A stretch of 64,000 nucleotides of DNA, from positions 18,159 through 82,158 of the forward strand of contig PFEF01000008.1 of assembly GCA_002793915.1 (NCBI GenBank). The letters run 5' to 3'. Shown here piece after piece: positions 11,488 to 64,000 of this stretch (its first letter is position 1; each line of letters opens with the position of its first letter). The position numbers and the translations under genes are program-made. The notes under the pieces are model-generated. The model searched no databases. It was not told where the DNA came from and saw only the letters and a program-made list of their open reading frames with translations. Source of the DNA: Candidatus Ryanbacteria bacterium CG10_big_fil_rev_8_21_14_0_10_43_42. Its GTDB lineage: Bacteria; Patescibacteriota; Minisyncoccia; Ryanbacterales; 2-02-FULL-48-12.

Positions 11488-13428
11488 ATGTCGCAAACAA
11501 ACATCTTAAACGATCTGAATCCCGCCCAACAAAAAGCCGTTCTTACCAAAGACGGCGCTCTTTTGGTTATTGCCGGCGCCGGATCCGGGAAAACAAAGGT
11601 GCTCGTACACCGCATTGCACGCCTTATAGAAACAGGCGTTCGTCCTGAAAACATCCTTGCCGTTACCTTTACCAACAAAGCCGCCCGCGAAATGAAGGAA
11701 CGTGCCATTCAACTATTAACAGGAAACGCACGCTCCGGCGAAACACCCACACCCAAAACCACGCCATGGATAGGCACTTTTCACGCATTGGGCGTTTATA
11801 TTCTCCGGCGACACGGCAGTCATCTGGGCATCCCCGGCAACTTTACCATTCTTGATGAAGATGAGGCGCGGGCCCTCGTGAAACGGCTTTTAAAAGAACG
11901 TTCCGCTGACCCAAAACAATTTCCGCCCGCCCGCATACGCCAAATGATTTCTCACATGAAAAATAATCCCGCGACAAAACATGACGAAGAAGAGGAACAC
12001 ACCTATCCCGAAATAATACGAGATGTATTTCGGGCGTATGAAGAAGAACTTGAACGCGCACATACGCTCGATTTTGATGATCTGCTCGTGCGCACTCTTC
12101 GCTTGCTATCCGAATATCCCGACGTTCTTGCGGCATATCACCGTACATGGCCGTACATTATGGTGGACGAATACCAAGACACAAACCATATACAATACAC
12201 CATAACGAAACTTCTAAGCAAAGGGTCCGGTAATATTATGGTAGTGGGAGATATAGATCAGGCAATTTATTCGTGGCGGGGGGCTAATTTTCGCAATATT
12301 TTGGCATTTGAAAAAGATTGGCCCAAAACAACAGTCATAACGCTTGAACAAAATTACCGCTCAACATCAATAATTCTTGAGGCGGCAAATACGCTTATCA
12401 AAAACAATAACGAACGGCGGGAAAAAAACCTCTGGACGGCAAATGAGGGAGGGGATCGTATTCGCATTACCGTAACGGACGACGAGCGACAAGAAGCGCG
12501 ATATGTTTTGCGAACCATTCATGCTCTTACCCAAAAACATACGCGCCTTAACGATATAGCTATTTTGTACCGCACCAACGCACAATCCCGTGCCATTGAG
12601 GAAGAACTAATAAAACACGCTGTTCCATACCGCCTCGTAGGAGGCACGCGATTCTACGAAAGAAAAGAAATACGGGACATGCTTGCTTATATGCGTATTG
12701 CGCAAAACCCGGAAGACGTCATAAGCATGGATCGCATTCGCAACGTTCCCGCGCGGGGCATCGGAAAGGTTCTCGCGGAAAAATACAAGAATAACATTCC
12801 TCTCACACCAAAGGAACAGAAAAAGATTTCCATTTTTGAAAACATACGGCGCATACTGGAAGAAGCGCGTGCCAAGAAACCCGTAAGCGAATTTTTACAG
12901 ACAATCATCCGGCATACGGCGTATGAATCTTTTTTGCGGGATGGAACAGCAGAGGGAGAAGACCGCTGGGCAAATATTCTTGAGCTTTTTACGGTGACAA
13001 AAGAATATGATTCCGTGCCAGCTCCGCGCGGAACGGAGCAATTTTTAGAGGAAGCATCCCTTCTTGCCGATGCCGACACGGTGGATGAAACAACGGGTGC
13101 TGTGCATCTTATGACCGTACACGCCGCAAAAGGGCTGGAATTTAATACCGTATTTGTTGTAGGACTTGAAGAGGGTGTGTTTCCCCACAGCTTAAGCGCA
13201 TTTTCAGGGGATGAACTCGAAGAAGAACGCCGCCTGTGTTATGTGGCTCTCACACGGGCAAAATCACAGCTATTCCTCACTATGGCACGTACCCGCATGC
13301 TTTACGGAGAAAAAACATGGAATGAACCGTCGCGATTTCTTGCGGAAATTCCGGAACATCTCATAACAGAAACACCATCCAAACCGGCTATTCAAGAAGA
13401 AGATATCATAGGCTACGACATAGGATAA
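11488..13428 (+). CDS. uvrD: UvrD/PcrA-family ATP-dependent DNA helicase
   Basis: 646 aa; Walker A AGAGSGKT, motifs DEYQDTN, VGD.DQAIY.WRGA, helicase C-terminal motifs. Confidence 0.9.
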   Translation: MSQTNILNDLNPAQQKAVLTKDGALLVIAGAGSGKTKVLVHRIARLIETGVRPENILAVTFTNKAAREMKERAIQLLTGNARSGETPTPKTTPWIGTFHALGVYILRRHGSHLGIPGNFTILDEDEARALVKRLLKERSADPKQFPPARIRQMISHMKNNPATKHDEEEEHTYPEIIRDVFRAYEEELERAHTLDFDDLLVRTLRLLSEYPDVLAAYHRTWPYIMVDEYQDTNHIQYTITKLLSKGSGNIMVVGDIDQAIYSWRGANFRNILAFEKDWPKTTVITLEQNYRSTSIILEAANTLIKNNNERREKNLWTANEGGDRIRITVTDDERQEARYVLRTIHALTQKHTRLNDIAILYRTNAQSRAIEEELIKHAVPYRLVGGTRFYERKEIRDMLAYMRIAQNPEDVISMDRIRNVPARGIGKVLAEKYKNNIPLTPKEQKKISIFENIRRILEEARAKKPVSEFLQTIIRHTAYESFLRDGTAEGEDRWANILELFTVTKEYDSVPAPRGTEQFLEEASLLADADTVDETTGAVHLMTVHAAKGLEFNTVFVVGLEEGVFPHSLSAFSGDELEEERRLCYVALTRAKSQLFLTMARTRMLYGEKTWNEPSRFLAEIPEHLITETPSKPAIQEEDIIGYDIG

Positions 13429-35027: not shown

Positions 35028-36476
35028 TTATTCTGATACTGCGGCATGGAAGAGATCATTAAGCAATCCGATCACGATAGCTTTCTTCGCATAAAGATCA
35101 AGACAGGATAATTCCTTCCGAAGTTCCTGGACCCTGTCGGTAAGTTGTATTTCTTCTTTGCGGGGCAGAAGCGCCTTGATCGCTAATGCGGTTATCGCTT
35201 CAGGAAGACGGACGGACTCATTACCGACAGTACCAAAATCAGAGCCTTTGCATGATGTACGCGCATCAATATAGGGAGAATGATCAACGTTAGTTCGGGT
35301 TGATAGATCGCGTACTTCATAAATACGCGGTTTGTCTTTATTGTCGTTCGGGTTCAAACATACTAGTAGATCAAAATCTATCAGATGTTTCATAGCGTAT
35401 GCCGGGACGTTTGCTTGGCGGAGGATCTTTTTCGGATTCATTACTACAAAACAATCTCTTTCATATTGCATCGCATGCTTCTTAAGCACAGTTAAGGCGA
35501 TTTCATACTGTTCCCTACGCTCTGTTGTTCCTTTGCGGTACCCTTGCGGCTGGTTGTCGGGTACGGGAAGGCTTTCAGAACGCCTTTTTTTAACCTCCTT
35601 ATTGGAATTCCCCCCTTGAGGACCGGTTGCGGGCGCTGAATTCATGATCTCACGCATCTCTTTTATGGCTTGTGTTTTTAACTGACTTATCCTACTTTCT
35701 GTCAGATTCAACATTTGTCCAACTTCTTTTTCAGTGCGATCCTCATAAAATAGAAGGGTCAATACTTGTTTGCTTCGATGTGGTAGAAGATCAAGGGTCT
35801 TAATCGCCATACGGAGTAATTCCGCCTCCTCTACTGCGGATTCCGGATTATTCGAGTAATCAGGCAACTCGAATTCATAGGATTCCAAGTAATGGTAATG
35901 ATTCTCTGTATTACCCGGATAGGGAGGCAGTATATCCCCTAAACCTCTTACATCGATATGTGCACGTGCCCTTCTTTTCTGAAATTCCTCCATGGTGAGG
36001 CCTAACCGCTCCGCCTCTTCTTCATGAGTTGGAGTGCGATGAAGCTCCTGCTTCAAATTTAAATTATTAGAAGTAATTTCTCTCTCCATCCTACGCGAAG
36101 AGCGCGGCGCTATATCAATGGAGCGTAAATGTTTTATCATTTCCCCATTGATTCGCTTCTTTGCATAGTCAGTAAAAGCAACACCATAAGACGGATCATA
36201 CCGGTCTCTACACTGAAGCAAGCCGACCACACCGCTTTGAAAAAGCTCTTCGATAGAAACAGTATTCCGCCGTAAGGATTTCTGCATATTCTGCGCCATA
36301 GTGCGCACCATCGGTAGAAGGGATTCTACATCGATGGGAGCATCGGCAATTTCCCTTTCTTCAGAAGACATAAAACTCATCCCCCATTCTGAATTTATGT
36401 TATGTGAAGGTATGTGTGTTAATGAGCACGTGTAGAAACTCTGCGTACGCGACACAGTATCTTTTACGCAACTCAC
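35028..36476 (-). CDS. sigma-70 family (FliA/WhiG/sigma-28-like) RNA polymerase sigma factor fused to ~200-aa C-terminal domain of unknown function
   Basis: region 2 (FTDYAKKRINGEMIKHLR) and region 4 HTH (EKEVGQMLNLTESRISQLKTQAIKEMRE) recognisable in first ~270 aa; long C-terminal extension; alternative start MSFMSSEE at 36380. Confidence 0.75.
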   Translation of the reverse strand: MSCVKDTVSRTQSFYTCSLTHIPSHNINSEWGMSFMSSEEREIADAPIDVESLLPMVRTMAQNMQKSLRRNTVSIEELFQSGVVGLLQCRDRYDPSYGVAFTDYAKKRINGEMIKHLRSIDIAPRSSRRMEREITSNNLNLKQELHRTPTHEEEAERLGLTMEEFQKRRARAHIDVRGLGDILPPYPGNTENHYHYLESYEFELPDYSNNPESAVEEAELLRMAIKTLDLLPHRSKQVLTLLFYEDRTEKEVGQMLNLTESRISQLKTQAIKEMREIMNSAPATGPQGGNSNKEVKKRRSESLPVPDNQPQGYRKGTTERREQYEIALTVLKKHAMQYERDCFVVMNPKKILRQANVPAYAMKHLIDFDLLVCLNPNDNKDKPRIYEVRDLSTRTNVDHSPYIDARTSCKGSDFGTVGNESVRLPEAITALAIKALLPRKEEIQLTDRVQELRKELSCLDLYAKKAIVIGLLNDLFHAAVSE

Positions 36477-43848: not shown

Positions 43849-45522
43849 CTATTCTCCCGTAACGCGTTCCACTTCCGAAATGCTCGTAATTCCCGCGAGC
43901 ATTTTTAGTATACCATCCTGTTGCATGGTGAGCATGCCTTGTTTTTCTGCCGCTTCCCGTACGTCCGCTTCGGATGGTCGTTCAAGAATAAGATGCTCTA
44001 TTTCATCATTAATACGAAATACCTCGAAAATGCCAATGCGTCCCGTGTATCCCGTATTATTACATGAGGCACATCCCTTAGCACGCCATATTGTCGCACC
44101 GGAAAGAGGAGGTGTGGTGTAGGGTTTAGGTAGTTCTCGTACCATTTCTTTTACACTCGCAAGCTCCTCGCCTTCAAGAATATACCCCTCTTTGCAATGT
44201 TCGCATAAACGACGGACCAGCCGCTGTGCCATGGCTATGTTAATGGCAGGGGCGATAATACTGGGATCTACTTCAAGATCAATTAGGCGCGGTATGGTTC
44301 CCGGCGCATTATTGGTGTGTAGTGTGGAGAATACGAGGTGTCCGGTAAGGGCGGCATGCATAGCAATCTCCGCCGTATCACGGTCGCGGATTTCTCCCAC
44401 GAGAATAATATCGGGATCCTGGCGTAAAATAGATCGAAGGCCGTTGTTGAAATCATATCCTTTTTCGGTATTAACCTGTGTCTGATTAACACCGGTAAGA
44501 TGATATTCAATAGGGTCCTCGATAGTGATAATATTTATGTTCGTATTGTTTACTTCTCGAAGAAAGGAATAAAGAGTGGTTGTTTTTCCGGAACCGGTAG
44601 GACCGGTTGTGAGAATCATGCCATTGGGTTTTTTAAGCTCTTCTTCGACAAGTATGCGAACCGGATCTTGCATTCCTAAATCCTTAAGACCAATATCTAT
44701 TGTCTTCGGATTTAAAAGACGCATTACAATTGATTCCCCGTGAGGTCCCGGCAGAGTAGAGGTACGGACTTCTATATCAATATCATCCGTACGAATGGTA
44801 AATCGTCCGTCTTGTGCGCGATTTTTTATATTAAGCTTAATGCCGGACAGCAGTTTAATGCGTGAAAGGAGAAGAAGGTAAATACGCTCCGAGAAAAAAG
44901 TAACGTCTTCCAGTACGCCATCAATACGTACGCGAAGACGTGTTTCTTTTTCTTCGGCCTCAATATGAATATCCGATGTCCCCAGGTTAAGAGCTCCTTG
45001 TAAAAGCACTTCAAGTGTTCCGCTCGTTTTACGGTCTTCTTTTGCTTCAAGAAGGGGTGATAGGGTATTGGTAAGATCGGCAAGACTTCTTATGGTACGA
45101 GCCGCTTTGGTGATGTCGGACGTAGCGCGGAGTTCAACAACACCCTCTTCAACCGCTTTAACGGTTGATACTTCTTTATATTTTTCCCACGCCTTTTCCA
45201 GGCTGTGTGTGGAAACCAAAAAAAGTTGTGGTATGTAGCGTTTTCGTTTTAAGTCTTCCAAAAGAGCCTGTGCGGAATCATGATTAGGTGCACGCAAGCC
45301 GATTTTTATATTGCGTCCGACTATCTGAATAACGGCAAGTCCCGCATCTCGTGCGATGGATTCGGGAATAACGGCGAGTGAATCAGTATCAATAGATATA
45401 GTATCCAAATTTAAATAAGGGATGCCGTATTTTTCGGCAAGCATGCGTGCGAGATCTTCCCCTTCTTTTATGTGAAGCTCGCGCAGGTGCTCATCTACTT
45501 CATCTTCGCTAAATTCTGTCAT
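43849..45522 (-). CDS. pilB: type IV pilus assembly ATPase PilB / GspE family
   Basis: 557 aa; N-terminal GSPII_E_N domain, Walker A GPTGSGKTTT, Asp/His boxes, tetracysteine CEHC..CASC zinc motif. Confidence 0.9.
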   Translation of the reverse strand: MTEFSEDEVDEHLRELHIKEGEDLARMLAEKYGIPYLNLDTISIDTDSLAVIPESIARDAGLAVIQIVGRNIKIGLRAPNHDSAQALLEDLKRKRYIPQLFLVSTHSLEKAWEKYKEVSTVKAVEEGVVELRATSDITKAARTIRSLADLTNTLSPLLEAKEDRKTSGTLEVLLQGALNLGTSDIHIEAEEKETRLRVRIDGVLEDVTFFSERIYLLLLSRIKLLSGIKLNIKNRAQDGRFTIRTDDIDIEVRTSTLPGPHGESIVMRLLNPKTIDIGLKDLGMQDPVRILVEEELKKPNGMILTTGPTGSGKTTTLYSFLREVNNTNINIITIEDPIEYHLTGVNQTQVNTEKGYDFNNGLRSILRQDPDIILVGEIRDRDTAEIAMHAALTGHLVFSTLHTNNAPGTIPRLIDLEVDPSIIAPAINIAMAQRLVRRLCEHCKEGYILEGEELASVKEMVRELPKPYTTPPLSGATIWRAKGCASCNNTGYTGRIGIFEVFRINDEIEHLILERPSEADVREAAEKQGMLTMQQDGILKMLAGITSISEVERVTGE

Positions 45523-54331: not shown

Positions 54332-56257
54332 CTAAATACGGGTGAGTATATCGCGCAGTTTTGCCGCTCGTTCAAAATCCAAGTTTGCCGCCGCGTCCAG
54401 CATTTCGTCTTCCAGTTCCTTTTTTAATTCCGTTACCGACCGTTTTTCTGTTTTTACGCGTCTAACAGCATCTTCAATTGTTTCCTCTTTTGCATGTTCA
54501 GGAAACCATTCCCGGACATCTTTTTGTATGGCGTGGGGAATAATGCCATGCTTTTTATTGTATGCGTTCTGTTTTTTGCGCCGGCGTTCCGTTATGCCCA
54601 TAGCGCTTTTCATGGAATCCGTTATGGTATCGGCGTACATAATAACGCGTCCCGACAAATGGCGCGCGGCGCGTCCCATTGTTTGTATGAGTGTTGTTTC
54701 ATTGCGTAGAAACCCTTCTTTGTCGGCGTCCAGAATGGCTACCAGGGAAACCTCCGGCATATCAAGTCCCTCTCGCAGAAGGTTAATACCAACGAGGGCA
54801 TCAAATGTTCCAATGCGGAGCTTATTGAGAAGCGCGGGGCGTTCCAGTGTTTTTATGTCGGCATGAATATATTCGGCCTTAATACCGGCATCTCTAAGAT
54901 AATCCGCAATATCTTCCGCAAGTCGTTTTGTTATAGTAGTTACAAGTGTTCGTTCTCCCCGTTTGGAGCGTATTTTTATTTCCTGAATCAGGTCCTGAAT
55001 CTGGTTTTTTGTGGGGCGTATTTCTATTTCAGGATCCAGTAGTCCGGTGGGGCGTATGATTTGTTCTATAACGGGACCTTGTTTTAATTCGTATGAACTC
55101 GGAGTAGCTGATACATATATTGTTTGTGATACTTTTTCTTCGAATTCGGCGAATTGGAGAGGACGGTTATCAAGCGCCGATGGTAATCGAAATCCATGAT
55201 CAACGAGAGTGCGTTTTCGTGCCTGATCTCCGTTATACATGCCGCGAATTTGGGGAAGCGTAATGTGTGACTCGTCGATAAAAACAAGGTAGTCATCCTT
55301 AAAATAATCAAATAAGGTATATGGCGGATCTCCCTTTTTTCGGAATGATAAATGACGGGAATAATTTTCAACACCAGACAGATATCCGGTATTTTTAAGC
55401 ATTTCCATATCAAATCGCGTGCGTTGTTCCAAGCGTTCAGCTTCTAAAAGTTTTCCGTTTTTGCGAAAGACGGCAAGTTGTTCTTCCAGTTCGGTATAAA
55501 TATTTGCAACAGCTGTGTCTATTTTTTCCTGTGGCGTGACGAAATGTTTTGCCGGAAATATACGCATGTCTTTTTGTGTGGAGGTGTTATTTATGCGGTC
55601 AATCTGATTGCCAAAAAATTCGATTGTCGTTATTTCCATGCCGGTTGGAGAGGTAATGGTTACCTTCTCTCCTTTCGCCGTGAATGTTCCGGGAAGGCTT
55701 TGTATGTCATTTCGGGTATATTGAAGAGTGGCAAGCGTTCGTAGGAAATCCTGCCGGCTAAGGGTTTCTCCCACACGAATGCGCGCACTCATGGCATCAT
55801 ATTCACGCGGATCCCCAATGCCGTAAATGCAGGAAACGGAGGCGACAATAATAACATCTTTACGGGAAAGAGCGGATTGTGTGGATGCGTGCCGTAGACG
55901 GTCGATAAATTCGTTTATACTCGCATCCTTTTCTATATAGGTATCTGTTTGGGGAATATATGCTTCCGGCTGATAATAATCGTAGTAAGATACAAAATAG
56001 TGTACGGCGTTTTCCGGAAAGAACTCCTTAAATTCCTGATAAAGCTGTGCGGCAAGAGTTTTATTATGGGAAAAAATGAGGGTTGGTTTTTGAATACGCT
56101 CAATAACATTCGCCATGGTGAATGTTTTTCCGGACCCCGTAACACCCAGAAGTGTTTGATAGGGCTTTCCTTCCCGAATACCGGCCGCTAAGCTTTCAAT
56201 AGCAGTGGGCTGATCTCCGGTAGGTTTGAATGGTGATGAGAGATGAAATTTTGACAT
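54332..56257 (-). CDS. uvrB: excinuclease ABC subunit B
   Basis: 641 aa; Walker A GVTGSGKTFT, beta-hairpin, UVR domain at C-terminus. Confidence 0.95.
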   Translation of the reverse strand: MSKFHLSSPFKPTGDQPTAIESLAAGIREGKPYQTLLGVTGSGKTFTMANVIERIQKPTLIFSHNKTLAAQLYQEFKEFFPENAVHYFVSYYDYYQPEAYIPQTDTYIEKDASINEFIDRLRHASTQSALSRKDVIIVASVSCIYGIGDPREYDAMSARIRVGETLSRQDFLRTLATLQYTRNDIQSLPGTFTAKGEKVTITSPTGMEITTIEFFGNQIDRINNTSTQKDMRIFPAKHFVTPQEKIDTAVANIYTELEEQLAVFRKNGKLLEAERLEQRTRFDMEMLKNTGYLSGVENYSRHLSFRKKGDPPYTLFDYFKDDYLVFIDESHITLPQIRGMYNGDQARKRTLVDHGFRLPSALDNRPLQFAEFEEKVSQTIYVSATPSSYELKQGPVIEQIIRPTGLLDPEIEIRPTKNQIQDLIQEIKIRSKRGERTLVTTITKRLAEDIADYLRDAGIKAEYIHADIKTLERPALLNKLRIGTFDALVGINLLREGLDMPEVSLVAILDADKEGFLRNETTLIQTMGRAARHLSGRVIMYADTITDSMKSAMGITERRRKKQNAYNKKHGIIPHAIQKDVREWFPEHAKEETIEDAVRRVKTEKRSVTELKKELEDEMLDAAANLDFERAAKLRDILTRI

Positions 56258-59593: not shown

Positions 59594-61132
59594 CTATGAC
59601 CCCAATAATATTCGTAAGTTTGCTGACATTGAGACCATAATGTTATCCATCATCTCATATGCATCTTCATTGGTAGAATATTTAATTTTTGCTTCTCCCA
59701 TTGAATAAGCCAAGAATGATACTGCGTTTAGCAGGTCTTTATTATCCTTGTTTTCAAGGATAAAACGTCGGTAAAATGGATGGGCAATATTCCATAGAAT
59801 AATTGTCTTTTTACCTTGTTTTTCTACGTCAAATATAATTCCCGCGCTTCCAAAATCATGTAATTCAAACTTTGCTATTTCAGGAAGAGATGGGCGTCCT
59901 CTGTGTTTATCTGTCTCCGGCGTTTTATTTTCTTCTTTCTCTCTTGCTTTTCGTGTTCTTTTTACAGGTATTTCCTTTTTTGCGTCAGACACATCAAGGA
60001 GTTTTCTGCTTTGAGCTATAGCTTTTTCAGCATCACTAAAGTTTAAATCTTCTGACTCTTCTACAGAATGGATTTTTCGGAAGCGGTTCCGAAGAGTATC
60101 GATTTGCGGCAATACATCATTTTTCAACTTGTCTAACACCGCTTGTGATGGTTTCACACCATGTTTGGAGTAATTAACACCCATAGCCTGATCTAATGTT
60201 CCCGGGAAGAATATCTCAACTCGTACTCGGTTTAGATCATTGTGTTTTGAGAAAATATTTAGCGTTTCCCCACCAGAGATTTGTCTATGGTTCCTAATTA
60301 GATAAAATCCTTGATTTGTTTGATTGAGTTTAAGTTTCCTGTTTATTGATTGGTCAAACATGGGAAGAACATGGATCTTAACAACTATTTCTTCTTCTCC
60401 AATGTTTGGAACTTTAATCGAAAACTTTTCACTACTGTAAAGTTCAGACCGTTTTTTATATTCATCCACCAAAATACCATCTTGCCACATGGGATCCACA
60501 ATATCAACTTTAGAGTTGTTAACTGTAATAACTTTGCCCGCGCGGAGAAACTCTCTGAATACTTCACCAAAATACTTACTTACCCTGTCAGAAAGCTCAT
60601 TAATATCCGTATAATTAACCTGATCACACTTTTCAATGATTAGTACCGTTCCGCATTTATCCAACCCATATCCTGCCGCAATACGCATATCCTCTTTGGA
60701 TGATTTCTCCCTGTAAACCTTAAAGTCATTAACTTCCGCCATATAATCCAAATCCATAATACCGGTGAGCATATCTTGTCCTTCCTCTTTGGTGTATATA
60801 ACAACCCTTCTTCCTATGGATATAGATGCGGTTACAAGCCCCATCCCAAACCTACCAAGGTCTGACTGGGTATCACGGGAAGTTAGAGATCCTAATTTTA
60901 GTGCTTGTTCTAATACATCTTCACTCATCCCGATCCCGTTGTCTGCAATAGATACCCGATAATCCTCCCTGTTTTTTTCAATTTTTATGTCTATAAGACT
61001 GGCGTCAGCATCAAGCGAATTATCTACCAAATCAGCTAAAGCGATGCTGTTATCATAGCCGCTAAATCGAAGGGACTCCATCAGTTTAGAGGCGTTAGGA
61101 GTATTATTCCTAGAGAAGTTTTTGTATTCCAT
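59594..61132 (-). CDS. stand-alone GHKL (Bergerat-fold, MORC/HATPase_c_3-like) ATPase with ~350-aa C-terminal domain of unknown function
   Basis: 512 aa; N-box LADLVDNSLDA, G1 IADNGIGM, G2 GRFGMGL in first 110 aa; followed by AT-rich islet. Confidence 0.65.
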   Translation of the reverse strand: MEYKNFSRNNTPNASKLMESLRFSGYDNSIALADLVDNSLDADASLIDIKIEKNREDYRVSIADNGIGMSEDVLEQALKLGSLTSRDTQSDLGRFGMGLVTASISIGRRVVIYTKEEGQDMLTGIMDLDYMAEVNDFKVYREKSSKEDMRIAAGYGLDKCGTVLIIEKCDQVNYTDINELSDRVSKYFGEVFREFLRAGKVITVNNSKVDIVDPMWQDGILVDEYKKRSELYSSEKFSIKVPNIGEEEIVVKIHVLPMFDQSINRKLKLNQTNQGFYLIRNHRQISGGETLNIFSKHNDLNRVRVEIFFPGTLDQAMGVNYSKHGVKPSQAVLDKLKNDVLPQIDTLRNRFRKIHSVEESEDLNFSDAEKAIAQSRKLLDVSDAKKEIPVKRTRKAREKEENKTPETDKHRGRPSLPEIAKFELHDFGSAGIIFDVEKQGKKTIILWNIAHPFYRRFILENKDNKDLLNAVSFLAYSMGEAKIKYSTNEDAYEMMDNIMVSMSANLRILLGS

Positions 61133-61312
61133 TTTATTTGACCTCGATAGCTATTAACCACCAAGATCGGTTAATTTTAATAAACAAAAACAGACCACAT
61201 AGAGCGTCTGTGTACGTTAAAAATATTATGGATCCATAAGCTTTTAGATTAGGCCTCGATAACGCCGTAGCGCCACCAAAACACTGCTTATAATTTAATA
61301 TCTCCAGTATAC

Positions 61313-61651
61313 ATGATGAGATTTTTTTGTCAAGCGCATGTGATCATGTATAGTGAAGACATGTTTAGAAACGAGGAGAAATCTGAACACAAAGACCTGC
61401 CCACCACACTAGAGTCCTTGGACACGGGTGATGGGCTATACATTGCTATTGGTGATCCATTGCCCAACGGAGACGTAAAAGTAAACTACTTTTACAGCAA
61501 TGAGATACCTAAACTGAAAGCAAAAGTTGGAAATACTGTGCGCCAAATGAAAATCTCGTATGACTCTGTTGCGTACGACAACAATCAGTTGCTACATCTT
61601 TTATTTGGAAAAACAAAAAAGTTTCGTGAACAAGTTAAAGAAAAAAACTAA
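61313..61651 (+). CDS. hypothetical protein in AT-rich islet
   Basis: 112-aa ORF, no motif; possibly degenerate. Confidence 0.3.
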   Translation: MMRFFCQAHVIMYSEDMFRNEEKSEHKDLPTTLESLDTGDGLYIAIGDPLPNGDVKVNYFYSNEIPKLKAKVGNTVRQMKISYDSVAYDNNQLLHLLFGKTKKFREQVKEKN

Positions 61652-61826
61652 CCCGGATAATGTTTTTGTTGACAGCAAAGAACTTGTTGAGTTTCTTCAT
61701 GGTGCCATTCGCGCCAAAGGAAGAACGACGCAACATACGCAATTTTCAGTAAGAGAAGCGATATTTCTATCCGAACTTATTTTACACAAACAAAACGATC
61801 TAGTCCTATTTGTAATTGCGGACTAT

Positions 61827-62045
61827 ATGGCTGATAACTACCACAGTAGAGTTTCTGTATTTGCAAATGGTGCTTCATTCAGACGATTGCAATTCTTCAA
61901 ACAATTTCTTTTGCATAAAGGAAATGCTACTAAAGCGGCAATTGGTGCTGGCTACAGTCCAAAATCAGCCAAGCAACAGGGTCATAGATTACTTCGTTGG
62001 ATACAAAATAATCAACACAAATCAGTATCTGGGTTTCCTCTATAA
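61827..62045 (+). pseudogene. fragment resembling N-terminal HTH of phage terminase small subunit
   Basis: LQFFKQFLLHKGNATKAAIGAGYSPKSAKQQGHRLL matches Terminase_2-type HTH; ORF stops ~35 aa later (full-length ~150 aa expected). Confidence 0.4.
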
Positions 62046-62132: not shown

Positions 62133-62429
62133 TTAGTGATTTTGTTCTTTGGCTTTACTCGAAAAAGTAATCCCTATCCCAAGCAACACGATGAATACAC
62201 TCAATTGAACCAGCCCATGGAGCGAGAAAGCCTCAAAAATGAAATTAAGTATATAACCAAGATAAGGAATAAACACTGTCCAAGTTGGGGGAGTAGGGAT
62301 CGCAAAACCAAACAAATCTCTTGCAAACGGCTCATCAGGTTCTTTAGAAACTATCATTGAAAAACTTATGAGGAAAACGATAGCAATCCCGATAAAAAAA
62401 TTGCCAACAATTCTATTTAATTTTAACAT
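62133..62429 (-). CDS. small membrane protein (98 aa, 3 TM)
   Basis: hydrophobic ORF; start codon abuts repeated leader element copy 1. Confidence 0.45.
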   Translation of the reverse strand: MLKLNRIVGNFFIGIAIVFLISFSMIVSKEPDEPFARDLFGFAIPTPPTWTVFIPYLGYILNFIFEAFSLHGLVQLSVFIVLLGIGITFSSKAKEQNH

Positions 62430-62510
62430 ATTTTCGCGTAGGTTTTAAGCTAATAATTGCTCACACAAAAAGTCCGCATAACACACATCGACAATTCTTT
62501 TCGGATACTG
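62430..62510 (-). repeat. repeated 5' leader element, copy 1 (~80 nt)
   Basis: TTCGCGTAGGTTTTAA..ACAAAAAGTCCGCATAAC..CACATCGACAATTCTTTTCGGA shares ~75% identity with 63317-63400. Confidence 0.5.
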
Positions 62511-62558
62511 CGGGATATTCCAAAGAATAACTTATTGATTACATACTTTCAGGCATCA

Positions 62559-62963
62559 CTACGATAACCACACAAGGCGCACAAATATGAGATAACCAAG
62601 CAGTAGAATTACCGTTATTGGTGTAAAAACCAACATCATTCGCCATTCTTTTTTATCTTTTGTTTTGTCTAAACGCATAAGCGATATTGTGCCGGTGGCA
62701 ACAGCAAAGATCATAAATACGATGGTCAGATACAAAGACGCAACAAAAAGGTTCTCGGAAGCAAAGAACAGGAAATCATCCAAATCTTCATGCCTTTCTA
62801 ACCAGTCTGACAAGTATTCATACCTGTATACAAAATCATATAACCAGTCAAACGACGACGGCAAAAATGTTCCTATCCCCACCCACAGTAATCCAATAAC
62901 ATACAGCACAATGAAAACGAGAGTAAGTTTTGAGTATTTATTTGTTGTTGAAAACATATTCAT
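62559..62963 (-). CDS. polytopic membrane protein (134 aa)
   Basis: hydrophobic ORF 8 nt downstream of 62972-63316 gene (operon). Confidence 0.45.
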   Translation of the reverse strand: MNMFSTTNKYSKLTLVFIVLYVIGLLWVGIGTFLPSSFDWLYDFVYRYEYLSDWLERHEDLDDFLFFASENLFVASLYLTIVFMIFAVATGTISLMRLDKTKDKKEWRMMLVFTPITVILLLGYLIFVRLVWLS

Positions 62964-62971
62964 GGTTTATA

Positions 62972-63316
62972 TTATTTTCCTCTAATAAACAAAGTTTTTA
63001 TCCTATGGCGTAGTAGTATCAAGATCCCCAAAATTATGAAAACGAGCCTCAACAATGGTTCGTCAGTAATATCACCCCCTACTTTTCCAAGAAAAACGCC
63101 GGGAAGTAAACCAACTACTACCAGCAAATAACCAAACAAGTCCCATTCGGAGCGATTATTTTTTTTGTAATTTTCTAGCGACTCTTTGTCAGTTATTGTA
63201 GACTGAAAATAATCTTCTCGCGCTTTTCCTTTTAGAAAAGGTGGGATTGGCTTGCCTACCAACTTAAAGTTAGGTTTGTACAGCTCATCCTGCTTTTTTT
63301 CGTTTTGATTTTCCAT
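62972..63316 (-). CDS. small membrane protein (114 aa)
   Basis: start MENQNEKK at 63314-63316 abutting leader copy 2; longest ORF (to 63442) would read through the repeat. Confidence 0.45.
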   Translation of the reverse strand: MENQNEKKQDELYKPNFKLVGKPIPPFLKGKAREDYFQSTITDKESLENYKKNNRSEWDLFGYLLVVVGLLPGVFLGKVGGDITDEPLLRLVFIILGILILLRHRIKTLFIRGK

Positions 63317-63400
63317 GTTCGCGTAGGTTTTAACTATTAAAAGTTGGCCACAAAAAAGGCCGCACAACTCACACCGACAATTCCTTTCGGAATTGTCCAG
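63317..63400 (-). repeat. repeated 5' leader element, copy 2, containing perfect 9-4-9 palindrome GACAATTCC-TTTC-GGAATTGTC (63376-63397)
   Basis: direct comparison with 62430-62510. Confidence 0.5.
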
Positions 63401-63418
63401 CACCCTTTCGGGTACTGA

Positions 63419-63465
63419 CCTACGCGAATAAGTGGCGGTCATGCGACCATCTTTATTCGCGTAGG
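63419..63465. repeat. 13-bp perfect inverted repeat CCTACGCGAATAA-n21-TTATTCGCGTAGG
   Basis: direct reading; shares CGCGTAGG core with both leader copies. Confidence 0.5.
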
Positions 63466-63523
63466 ATTTGATACCATACCTTTAGAAATCTAAAGGGTTA
63501 GGTTTGTAAGTATAATTATATAA

Positions 63524-64000
63524 TCACAATTGTGATAAGGGAAGCTGATCTTCTTTCTTCAAGCTCATTTCTCTATAGATCTTCTTTAAGCTTTCCTTCG
63601 CATATCTTATAAAAGTATCATATTCTTCTTTTTGCCTATCAACTTCTTTCAAGAATGCCTCATACATTTTAAGAGACCCCGGCATGTTGTTATTCTTTTC
63701 GTACATTAAGCCTTGTACAAAAAGAAGCTCTTTTTTGCTTTGATATTTTTTATAGTATTCAGCTAAAAACACTAATACACTATTGAGCGTAAAATCCGTT
63801 ACATATCCATCAAGTGCCTTCTTATACAAATTAAACGATCTTTCAAAATTGCCTTCAAGTAAAACAAGAAAGGCTTCGCTATATCTCCAAGCACTATCAG
63901 GTAAACTACTGTTCCTATTTTGTTTTTTAATTTGTTTAATAACTTTTTTTGACCCCAACACATCTCCTTTTTCAAAAAGGTATAAGGCTTTGCTTAAACG
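63524..64000 (-). CDS. TPR-like helical-repeat protein, 5' end likely beyond window
   Basis: ORF remains open to window edge in same frame (..LSKALYLFEKGDVLG upstream of annotated Met); repeated A/Y/L helical pattern. Confidence 0.4.
   Translation of the reverse strand, partial: RLSKALYLFEKGDVLGSKKVIKQIKKQNRNSSLPDSAWRYSEAFLVLLEGNFERSFNLYKKALDGYVTDFTLNSVLVFLAEYYKKYQSKKELLFVQGLMYEKNNNMPGSLKMYEAFLKEVDRQKEEYDTFIRYAKESLKKIYREMSLKKEDQLPLSQL

Follow-up and report, generated by a model that had tools for sequence, protein, structure and literature searches.

Background

In the translational 'ON' riboswitches, of which the add adenine riboswitch of Vibrio vulnificus is an example, one strand of the closing helix pairs either with its partner in the aptamer or with the translation initiation region; the M-box Mg2+ riboswitch and the classic attenuators are terminator/antiterminator leaders that sense folding or compaction; and in the GEMM-I (c-di-GMP-I) riboswitch, which is found upstream of heterogeneous genes (often those of membrane or surface proteins), two domains are held together by a GNRA tetraloop and its receptor. 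The structured RNA motif termed 'LOOT' (Rfam RF03000), which reportedly comes from the 224-motif survey of Weinberg et al. 2017, has to our knowledge had no function assigned to it since its description in that year. It is the subject of the present analysis, which concerns a 64,000-nucleotide (nt) stretch of contig PFEF01000008.1 (positions 18,159 to 82,158 of the forward strand, hereafter 'the window') from Candidatus Ryanbacteria bacterium CG10_big_fil_rev_8_21_14_0_10_43_42, a member of the Patescibacteria, whose genomes are reduced, whose members are mostly uncultured and whose gene regulation is poorly understood. A LOOT RNA in this window stands ahead of genes for three small hydrophobic proteins (p114, p134 and p98), and comparison with about 190 related loci leads us to propose that the LOOT unit would function as a cis-acting 5' leader with two states, a reading to which we assign a probability of roughly 0.6.

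An earlier, sequence-only reading of the window had drawn attention to a duplicated element of about 80 nt, with palindromes, that abuts the start codons of two of these genes, and had offered three explanations for it: a shared promoter or operator for a dedicated regulator, a riboswitch-like leader, or a small mobile repeat. The same 10 to 16 nt recur there in the main stem of the RNA and at two start codons, and this single lead from one window extends to dozens of divergent loci that display three-way covariation, so that an orphan motif becomes a testable model of a leader switch acting at two levels. The main text of the survey of Weinberg et al. (PMC5737381) makes no mention of the LOOT motif, and the one text on LOOT that was found, PMC7657543, remarks upon unusual cross-covariations within it. 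The extended architecture described below, and the reading of it as a regulatory leader, may be new, save that some of it may have been noted in the original description.

A typical LOOT RNA ahead of the p114 gene

A scan of the whole window against Rfam returned LOOT as the single match, and none for any other Rfam family. The match lies at 63376-63504 on the minus strand, scores 86.0 bits in cmscan against a gathering score of 46.4 (E = 2.4e-16) and covers the model over its full length (positions 1-121 of 121). This stretch encodes a typical member of the known LOOT family: like the Rfam entry, which it matches from end to end, it displays six helices (P1 with its internal loop, a long two-part P2 and two terminal hairpins, on which the cmscan alignment and the minimum free energy fold agree), the conserved CCUAA...(C/U)AUGG loop, present here as CCUAAC...UAUGG, and two GAAA tetraloops, which cap P3 and P4. 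The minimum free energy fold of the leader ahead of p114 (-79.5 kcal/mol, z = -7.0 against shuffled sequences) reproduces all of these helices independently of cmscan. CCUAA and AUGG are the most conserved positions of the Rfam consensus, and the internal loop of P1 that contains them, CCUAAC...UAUGG, resembles what we take to be the 11-nt receptor of GAAA tetraloops (CCUAAG/UAUGG). The features of the unit, in the order in which they would be transcribed, are as follows.

63509 to 63538, minus strand: sigma-70-like promoter site (TTATCA, 18 nt, TATACT), a consensus match only, with its predicted start a few bases 5' of LOOT
63474 to 63502, minus strand: P1 hairpin (sequence read directly; Rfam alignment)
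63453 to 63465, minus strand: a, the 5' arm of P2, CCUACGCGAAUAA, the putative start-site mimic (inverted repeat complementary at 13/13 positions; paired in the fold)
63433 to 63449, minus strand: b, the interior of P2, a small hairpin GGUC-GCAU-GACC and the alternative complement of c (b:c duplex; covariation)
63419 to 63431, minus strand: a', the 3' arm of P2, UUAUUCGCGUAGG, the putative anti-start-site strand, able to pair with a, a2 or a2' (inverted repeat; fold)
63398 to 63417, minus strand: P3 hairpin with GAAA tetraloop (cmscan and fold; compensatory changes across loci)
63376 to 63397, minus strand: P4 hairpin with GAAA tetraloop, identical with the 9-4-9 palindrome (cmscan and fold; compensatory changes)
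63350 to 63375, minus strand: c strand, with its core GUGCGGCC at 63358-63365, then the U-rich tract UUUUUUGU at 63350-63357 (outside the Rfam model)
63314 to 63331, minus strand: a2, AAAACCUACGCGAAC, then the AUG of p114 (direct repeat of a abutting the start codon)
62972 to 63316, minus strand: open reading frame (ORF) of p114, 114 amino acids (aa), with two hydrophobic segments

When both strands are read, everything that the sequence-only reading had described is present where it was placed, and its palindromes turn out to be stems of this RNA: the perfect 13-bp inverted repeat (63419-63431 and 63453-63465, arms 21 nt apart) is P2, and the perfect 9-4-9 palindrome (GACAATTCC-TTTC-GGAATTGTC, 63376-63397) is P4. 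The extent given there was slightly narrow, since the structured element reaches 63504 and the promoter-like site 63538. The four CGCGTAGG cores that had been counted within 1.1 kb are likewise present, as exact copies of CCTACGCGAA at 62433-62442 (-), 63318-63327 (-), 63419-63428 (+) and 63456-63465 (-); they correspond to the 5' arm of the long stem (a), to its 3' arm (a') and to two copies of a (a2 and a2') that abut the ATG codons of p114 and p98. A search for further CCTACGCGAA sites in the window located a fifth exact copy at 36090-36099 (+), which was judged to be a chance occurrence: it lies inside an ORF of the opposite strand (35028-36476), lacks the AAAACC prefix and has no adjacent ATG.

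Boxes resembling a -10 hexamer are enriched 22-30 nt upstream of the CCTAA motif in 186 related loci. Two smaller features were seen in the same region. A perfect 12-bp palindrome, TCACAATTGTGA, at 63524-63535 overlaps both the -35 hexamer and spacer of the promoter-like site and the stop codon of an upstream TPR-like ORF, and could be an operator. Some related loci (L009, L028, L039 and L040) carry a semi-conserved ACAAYTDAAT stretch between the -10-like box and P1, 8-20 nt upstream of CCTAA; pairing of this ACAA with UUGU at the end of the U-rich tract is conceivable and would, if it occurs, close the whole RNA.

Related loci and a probable 3' extension of the motif

A pattern derived from the LOOT consensus was used to scan three public collections, and matched 1 locus in viral contigs and at least 120 loci in each of the collections of metagenome and genome contigs. 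A structural filter applied to the matches listed retained 223 loci with 206 unique cores, of which 188 are followed by at least 200 nt of downstream sequence; the statistics given for 'about 190 loci' throughout are those among the matches listed. The few matches in Streptomyces, Flavobacterium, cyanobacteria and the like failed the structural filter, and each of the 20 related loci that were compared with Rfam contains a single LOOT whose score exceeds the gathering score. Among the matches listed, those in genomes come almost entirely from metagenome-assembled genomes (MAGs) of Patescibacteria, the carriers including Saccharibacteria, Parcubacteria/Paceibacterota and Doudna-, Falkow-, Yanofsky-, Uhr- and Gottesmanbacteria, while related copies otherwise occur in metagenomes; the nearest relative of the window RNA (L188, 83% identity over 156 nt) belongs to a Candidatus Paceibacterota MAG. 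Some genomes harbor several LOOT copies whose stem sequences differ, as with three on one Doudnabacteria contig. Bona fide LOOT RNAs were also found in MAGs labelled Pacearchaeota, Gammaproteobacteria, Planctomycetia or Bdellovibrionales (L163, L128, L135, L161, L171, L176 and L208); their neighbouring genes look Patescibacteria-like, so that the labels or the binning of these MAGs are doubtful.

The Rfam model stops at P4, and the comparison of these loci indicates that the unit does not. All of b, the approximately 20 nt inside P2, has its complement in c, the strand that directly follows P4 and in turn runs into a U-rich tract. The mean b:c duplex energy is -25.7 kcal/mol, against -16.0 when b is confronted with the c strands of other loci, and in 147 of the 188 loci the native c ranks within the top 5% of all 188 c strands (median rank 3). 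When the native b-to-c stretches of 100 loci were aligned and folded with RNAalifold, b:c pairs were recovered with many compensatory changes, one pair being UA in 39 loci, CG in 33 and UG in 21. In the CTGAAC sub-type the loop of the inner hairpin covaries with c (CCCGC with GCGGGG, CCGTC with GGCGGG, CCTGC with GCAGGG, CGCAC with GTGCGG), and in the CTAAAC...GTTTAG variants c changes to match. Because both the inner hairpin loop and the 3' strand of b covary with c, that 3' strand can pair either with its own 5' strand or with c. In the window, c (GUGCGGCC) and the U-rich UUUUUUGU behind it lie some 60-80 nt downstream of b, with which c forms a duplex of -22.4 kcal/mol, and a standard terminator scan calls no terminator at this site.

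A further segment just after the U-rich tract (d) pairs with c at -14 kcal/mol or better in 39% of loci, compared with 15% of controls, mainly in the class of loci that possess a2. All three of c, d and a2 are absent from the Rfam model. The unit in the window and in about 190 loci thus appears to differ from the Rfam entry, which ends at P4 and is typed as a small RNA (sRNA) gene, by extending in the 3' direction through c and the U-rich tract, often through d, and in about 27% of cases through a2; this suggests that the LOOT model lacks the 3' end of the unit, and the type given to the family may be wrong.

A second c-like strand with its own U-rich tract, or else an ordinary hairpin terminator, follows the first at some loci (L008, about 20-90 nt after P3, and also L033 and L075). 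These arrangements suggest tandem attenuator modules.

A locus-specific copy of the stem arm at the start codon

In roughly a quarter to a third of loci, the window among them, arm a recurs as a2 directly ahead of the start codon, which gives a' a choice of two partners. The sequences of a, a' and a2 differ from locus to locus. The longest stretch common to arm a and to the 300 nt downstream reaches 9 nt or more in 54 of the 188 loci and 10 nt or more in 43; the corresponding counts in cross-locus controls are 19 and 4 of 940, and a locus's own upstream region gives 3 of 175. This test, together with the start-region duplex test described next, replaced a count of complementarity between a' and 300 nt of downstream sequence that allowed G-U pairs, the background of which was too high. 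The position of the repeat, which played no part in the selection, is strikingly uniform: in about 50 of the 54 loci its start lies 60-82 nt beyond P3, and 0-6 nt separate its end from the ATG of a genuine ORF. This 'a2 class' has members in each of the three LOOT sub-types; the spacing of c and the ATG varies little within it (30-47 nt), and motifs resembling a Shine-Dalgarno (SD) sequence are nearly absent (1 of 54). In a test that involved no selection, a' was paired with the start region (-24 to +3) of its own locus, and a duplex of -14 kcal/mol or better was obtained in 49 of 184 loci (about 27%), as opposed to 0.5% with the start regions of other loci; the window values are -18.4 kcal/mol for a2 and -18.6 kcal/mol for a2'.

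Within the a2 class, all four types of Watson-Crick pair occur at each of positions 6-9, and 89.6% of the a':a2 cells are canonical, against 49.6 ± 2.4% with shuffled partners, in a pair table (computed directly) that is descriptive only, the loci having been chosen because a equals a2. The a':a2 helix is longer than a:a' by one Watson-Crick pair, at the base 5' of the repeat, in 22 of the 54 loci, and in 19 of these 22 the triple consists of U in a, A in a2 and U in a'. Because of this additional pair, a2 is not a passive copy of a. RNAalifold applied to the stretch from a' to the ATG in 43 loci of the a2 class recovered P3 and P4 alone, because MAFFT misaligns the variable a'.

These observations bear directly upon the possibility that the repeats operate as DNA, either as a promoter or operator for a dedicated regulator or as a mobile repeat in which a and a2 would be the target-site duplication. 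The direct repeats do enclose about 125 nt, some genomes carry LOOT in several copies, it stands beside mobile or defence-type genes, and the 12-bp palindrome overlaps the promoter-like site. Nonetheless, GAAA tetraloops and compensatory changes are signatures of RNA, and the repeated sequence, which covaries as RNA pairs and belongs to hairpins with such tetraloops, differs in every locus, so that an operator would need a new regulator each time. As to a mobile repeat, a has both the promoter and the conserved P1 on its 5' side and is thus internal rather than at the edge of an element, and a and a2 are therefore not a target-site duplication; the two also differ systematically, with U in one and A in the other. 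The 64-kb window, moreover, contains one full and one partial copy, and the copies found within a single genome differ in sequence instead of being dispersed and nearly identical. A DNA-level element is thus highly improbable. Of the three explanations originally offered, the riboswitch-like leader came closest, in that the palindromes are LOOT stems and alternative pairings reach the start codon across about 190 loci, while the operator and the mobile repeat found no support.

Position relative to the downstream genes

An ORF of at least 45 aa starts on the same strand 25-100 nt after P3 in 160 of 188 loci (85%), compared with 28 of 170 (16%) on the divergent side, which served as a control. 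The LOOT RNA of the window conforms, being encoded on the same strand as p114 and ending 60 nt before its ATG (63316). In about 190 loci, LOOT is positioned as the 5' leader of the adjacent ORF, downstream of a -10-like box. The sequences of related loci of the a2 class, inspected by eye, display no consistent promoter in the approximately 36 nt from the U-rich tract to the ATG.

This arrangement weighs against the main rival explanation, which holds that LOOT is a stand-alone, trans-acting sRNA that ends at b:c and a U-rich terminator, with a' acting as an antisense seed upon the start regions of the p114 and p98 messages. Several properties would suit such an RNA: Rfam lists LOOT under 'Gene; sRNA', a GC-rich c followed by a U-rich tract is present in most loci, the window offers two identical target sites (a2 and a2', with the duplex energies given above), and copies of LOOT with different a arms in one genome would avoid cross-talk. 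On the other hand, a' is held within a perfect 13-bp helix, an unusual situation for a seed; an ORF lies within 100 nt in 85% of loci, and the 36 nt or so between U-rich tract and ATG in the a2 class, lacking a recurrent promoter, leave no room for a separate one; and among about 190 loci a second target site at an ATG is found in the window only. We regard a trans-acting sRNA as unlikely.

The downstream genes themselves are heterogeneous. The two that follow p114 in the window are listed here.

62559 to 62963, minus strand: ORF of p134, a protein both small and hydrophobic; the ORF has a GAGGA-type ribosome site of its own
62133 to 62429, minus strand: ORF of p98, a small membrane protein of 98 aa (BLASTP match to the third gene of the related locus L099)

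Searches of p114, p134 and p98 against Pfam and PHROGs assigned no family to any of them. Among 143 downstream proteins examined with Pfam, DNA methylases (10), peptidases (4), tRNA_anti-like domains (4) and zinc ribbons were recognized, most of the proteins being without a domain; small membrane proteins, zinc-ribbon membrane proteins and nuclease-like proteins also occur in this position. Loci that encode N6_N4 methylases fall, by eye, in the a2 class.

Three LOOT loci that precede type III-like DNA methylases (L017, L027 and L046) share the end of an upstream ORF, ...GAAGATATT(A/T)TGAAGTTATTGA..., about 70 nt upstream of LOOT, which places LOOT inside conserved restriction-modification cassettes.

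The diversity of these genes also makes a module akin to type I toxin-antitoxin systems, with the small hydrophobic proteins as toxins and LOOT as an RNA antitoxin that masks their start sites, barely credible. While p114, p134 and p98 are indeed small and hydrophobic, and a' is complementary to two of the three start regions, LOOT also precedes DNA methylases, nucleases, peptidases and zinc-ribbon proteins and is tied to no single family of small toxins; furthermore, the proteins in question (98-134 aa) are longer than typical type I toxins, and LOOT lies on the same strand and in the same transcription unit as they do.

A proposed two-state leader model

The two sets of alternative pairings can be combined into a simple scheme. 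With P2 closed, a would pair with a' and the inner hairpin would form, leaving c free or engaged in c:d and the start region single-stranded, so that read-through and translation could both proceed and the genes would be expressed. With P2 open, b would pair with c beside the U-rich tract, in the geometry of a terminator, and a' would pair with a2 and mask the start site from about -15 to -2, so that the genes would be switched off at the levels of both transcription and translation. Contact between the loop of P1 and a GAAA loop, in the manner of a tetraloop and its receptor, probably sets the stability of the closed state, and folding kinetics, Mg2+ or temperature, a protein or processing may be regarded as candidate triggers. 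For the window, the predicted energies of the LOOT fold (-79.5 kcal/mol), of a fold with a':a2 forced (-73.4 kcal/mol) and of one with b:c (-73.1 kcal/mol) all lie within about 6 kcal/mol. No linker separates a, b and a', so that a:a' and a full-length b:c probably exclude each other sterically.

The scheme shares features with each of the leader classes described at the outset, and departs from all of them. As in the add riboswitch, one strand (a') could pair in two ways, and closing of the helix would free the start site; unlike the add riboswitch, the sequestered stretch is specific to the locus, contains no SD sequence and abuts the AUG, rather than being a conserved SD sequence, there is no known ligand pocket, and the genes have no common theme. 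As in the M-box and the classic attenuators, two helices would be mutually exclusive (the 3' strand of b with the 5' strand of b, or with c), one of them abutting a U-rich tract, and tertiary docking could decide between them; unlike these, b:c in LOOT is long-range, spans a', P3 and P4, would be pseudoknotted with a:a', and is not called by a standard terminator scan. The tetraloop-receptor-like motif and the heterogeneous downstream genes recall GEMM-I, whereas LOOT has no similarity to it in sequence or model, a different architecture and no known link to a second messenger.

A different view of the same fold is that LOOT is a constitutive 5' module that never switches (for example, a stabilizer against 5' exonucleases, or an insulator), in which the complementarities of a2 and of c and d only tune folding, and the partial copy ahead of p98, termed copy 1, is a decaying by-product without function. 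The compact, tetraloop-receptor-like fold with no obvious ligand pocket and the heterogeneity of the downstream genes would fit such a module, as would the lack of structure in copy 1 and its restriction to the window, and the resemblance of the p114 N-terminus to a part missing from p98 fits duplication followed by rearrangement. What it does not lead one to expect is that three-way relations (a, a' and a2; the 5' strand of b, its 3' strand and c) should be kept across divergent loci without switching, and an anti-start-site strand a' that never came free would serve no purpose. A constitutive module is, in our judgement, decidedly unlikely.

Several points nevertheless weigh against the two-state leader. 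We infer the two states from sequence alone, and the a':a2 pair table must be discounted for the way in which its loci were chosen. The translational arm cannot be general, because a2 is present in only about 27-30% of LOOT loci. No pathway or theme is common to the downstream genes in the Pfam survey of 143 proteins and, as they share no common function, no trigger can be proposed. The helices a:a' and b:c may instead coexist as a pseudoknot; the conserved nucleotides may be accounted for by the tetraloop-receptor motif, with no ligand pocket evident; and a stand-alone RNA could simply end at b:c and its U-rich tract as its terminator, in keeping with the Rfam type of sRNA gene. Finally, copy 1 has no significant structure, and the exact conservation of its 16-nt a2' block, compared with about 70% identity elsewhere in copy 1, is only suggestive.

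With these points taken into account, the two-state leader is the reading that we prefer, and a broader version of it may be put forward more tentatively, at somewhat less than even odds: that LOOT is a widespread, multi-copy, cis-acting expression switch of the Patescibacteria, in which a stem stabilized by a tetraloop-receptor contact would hold both an anti-terminator and a locus-specific start-site mimic, such that a single folding decision would determine whether accessory genes, among them those of restriction-modification methylases and membrane proteins, are read through and translated. Even if the switch model is wrong, a known RNA family accounts for the palindromes of the window, and local rearrangement for the second copy.

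The partial second copy and the p98 gene

The similarity of the regions upstream of p114 and p98 to which the sequence-only reading had pointed is borne out by a global alignment in which 66 of 84 columns are identical. It comprises a direct repeat of 39 nt (62467-62505 and 63353-63391, 87% identity) and one of 19 nt (62430-62448 and 63315-63333, 95% identity); the last 16 nt ahead of the start region, TTAAAACCTACGCGAA, are identical in copy 1 and in the copy ahead of p114 (copy 2), and the homology stops at both ATG codons. In comparison with other LOOT loci, the window is distinguished by this second, partial copy of the 3' part of the unit.

62430 to 62505, minus strand: copy 1, which duplicates part of the region 3' of LOOT (alignment, 66/84 columns)
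Within copy 1, minus strand: the 3' half of P4; c', AUGCGGAC, at 62472-62479; a U-rich tract at 62463-62471; and a2', AAAACCUACGCGAA, at 62433-62446 (alignment)

Copy 1 consists of the 3' half of P4 and the following 65 nt down to the ATG, without the body of LOOT. It was considered as a degenerate LOOT and rejected, as it gives no LOOT match at E <= 10 and folds no better than shuffled sequences (z = +0.19). Its complementarity to strands of the full LOOT RNA is retained, b pairing with c' at -17.0 kcal/mol and a' with a2' as given above. Among about 190 loci, those in the matches listed, a second copy of a adjoining an ATG is seen in the window only.

The p98 protein is homologous to the product of the third gene in a LOOT-led operon of three genes at L099 (BLASTP, 38% identity over 92 aa, E = 9e-27), a gene that has no leader copy of its own. 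The N-terminus of the L099 protein, KTKEELYKP, resembles KKQDELYKP of p114 in the window (E = 0.05) and is missing from p98, from which it follows that the 3' part of the leader and the start of the gene would have been duplicated or rearranged locally, giving copy 1. Local rearrangement is thus supported as the probable origin of copy 1. A tandem duplication of the gene as a whole was rejected as an explanation, p114 and p98 being unrelated (BLASTP E = 1.4). The possibility that the similarity reflects nothing other than local duplication, which had been named as a ground for setting the element aside, is therefore true in part, for copy 1 (a partial duplication unique to the window and linked with rearrangement of the p98-type gene), and not for the main element, of which there are further copies with covariation. 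Copy 1 may place p98 under the same a' and b strands, or may be a young relic.

Neighbouring genes and minor observations

The window is chromosomal, encoding UvrB, a Mur ligase and RuvA, and its G+C content is 43%. Beside the LOOT operon lie a gene for a 512-aa HATPase_c_3 protein at 59594-61132 (-) and a 161-aa ORF at 61560-62045 whose match to small terminase subunits is limited to their N-terminal part, and the region 59594-62045 looks like the remnant of a mobile or defence island.

Boxes resembling TATAAT or TATACT lie about 7-12 nt upstream of many start codons in the window (for example, at 11488, 6743, 54332-56257 (-), 58779, 48283 and 43849-45522 (-)), and SD-like motifs precede only 11 of its 45 long ORFs, which suggests that leaderless messages may be common in the source organism.

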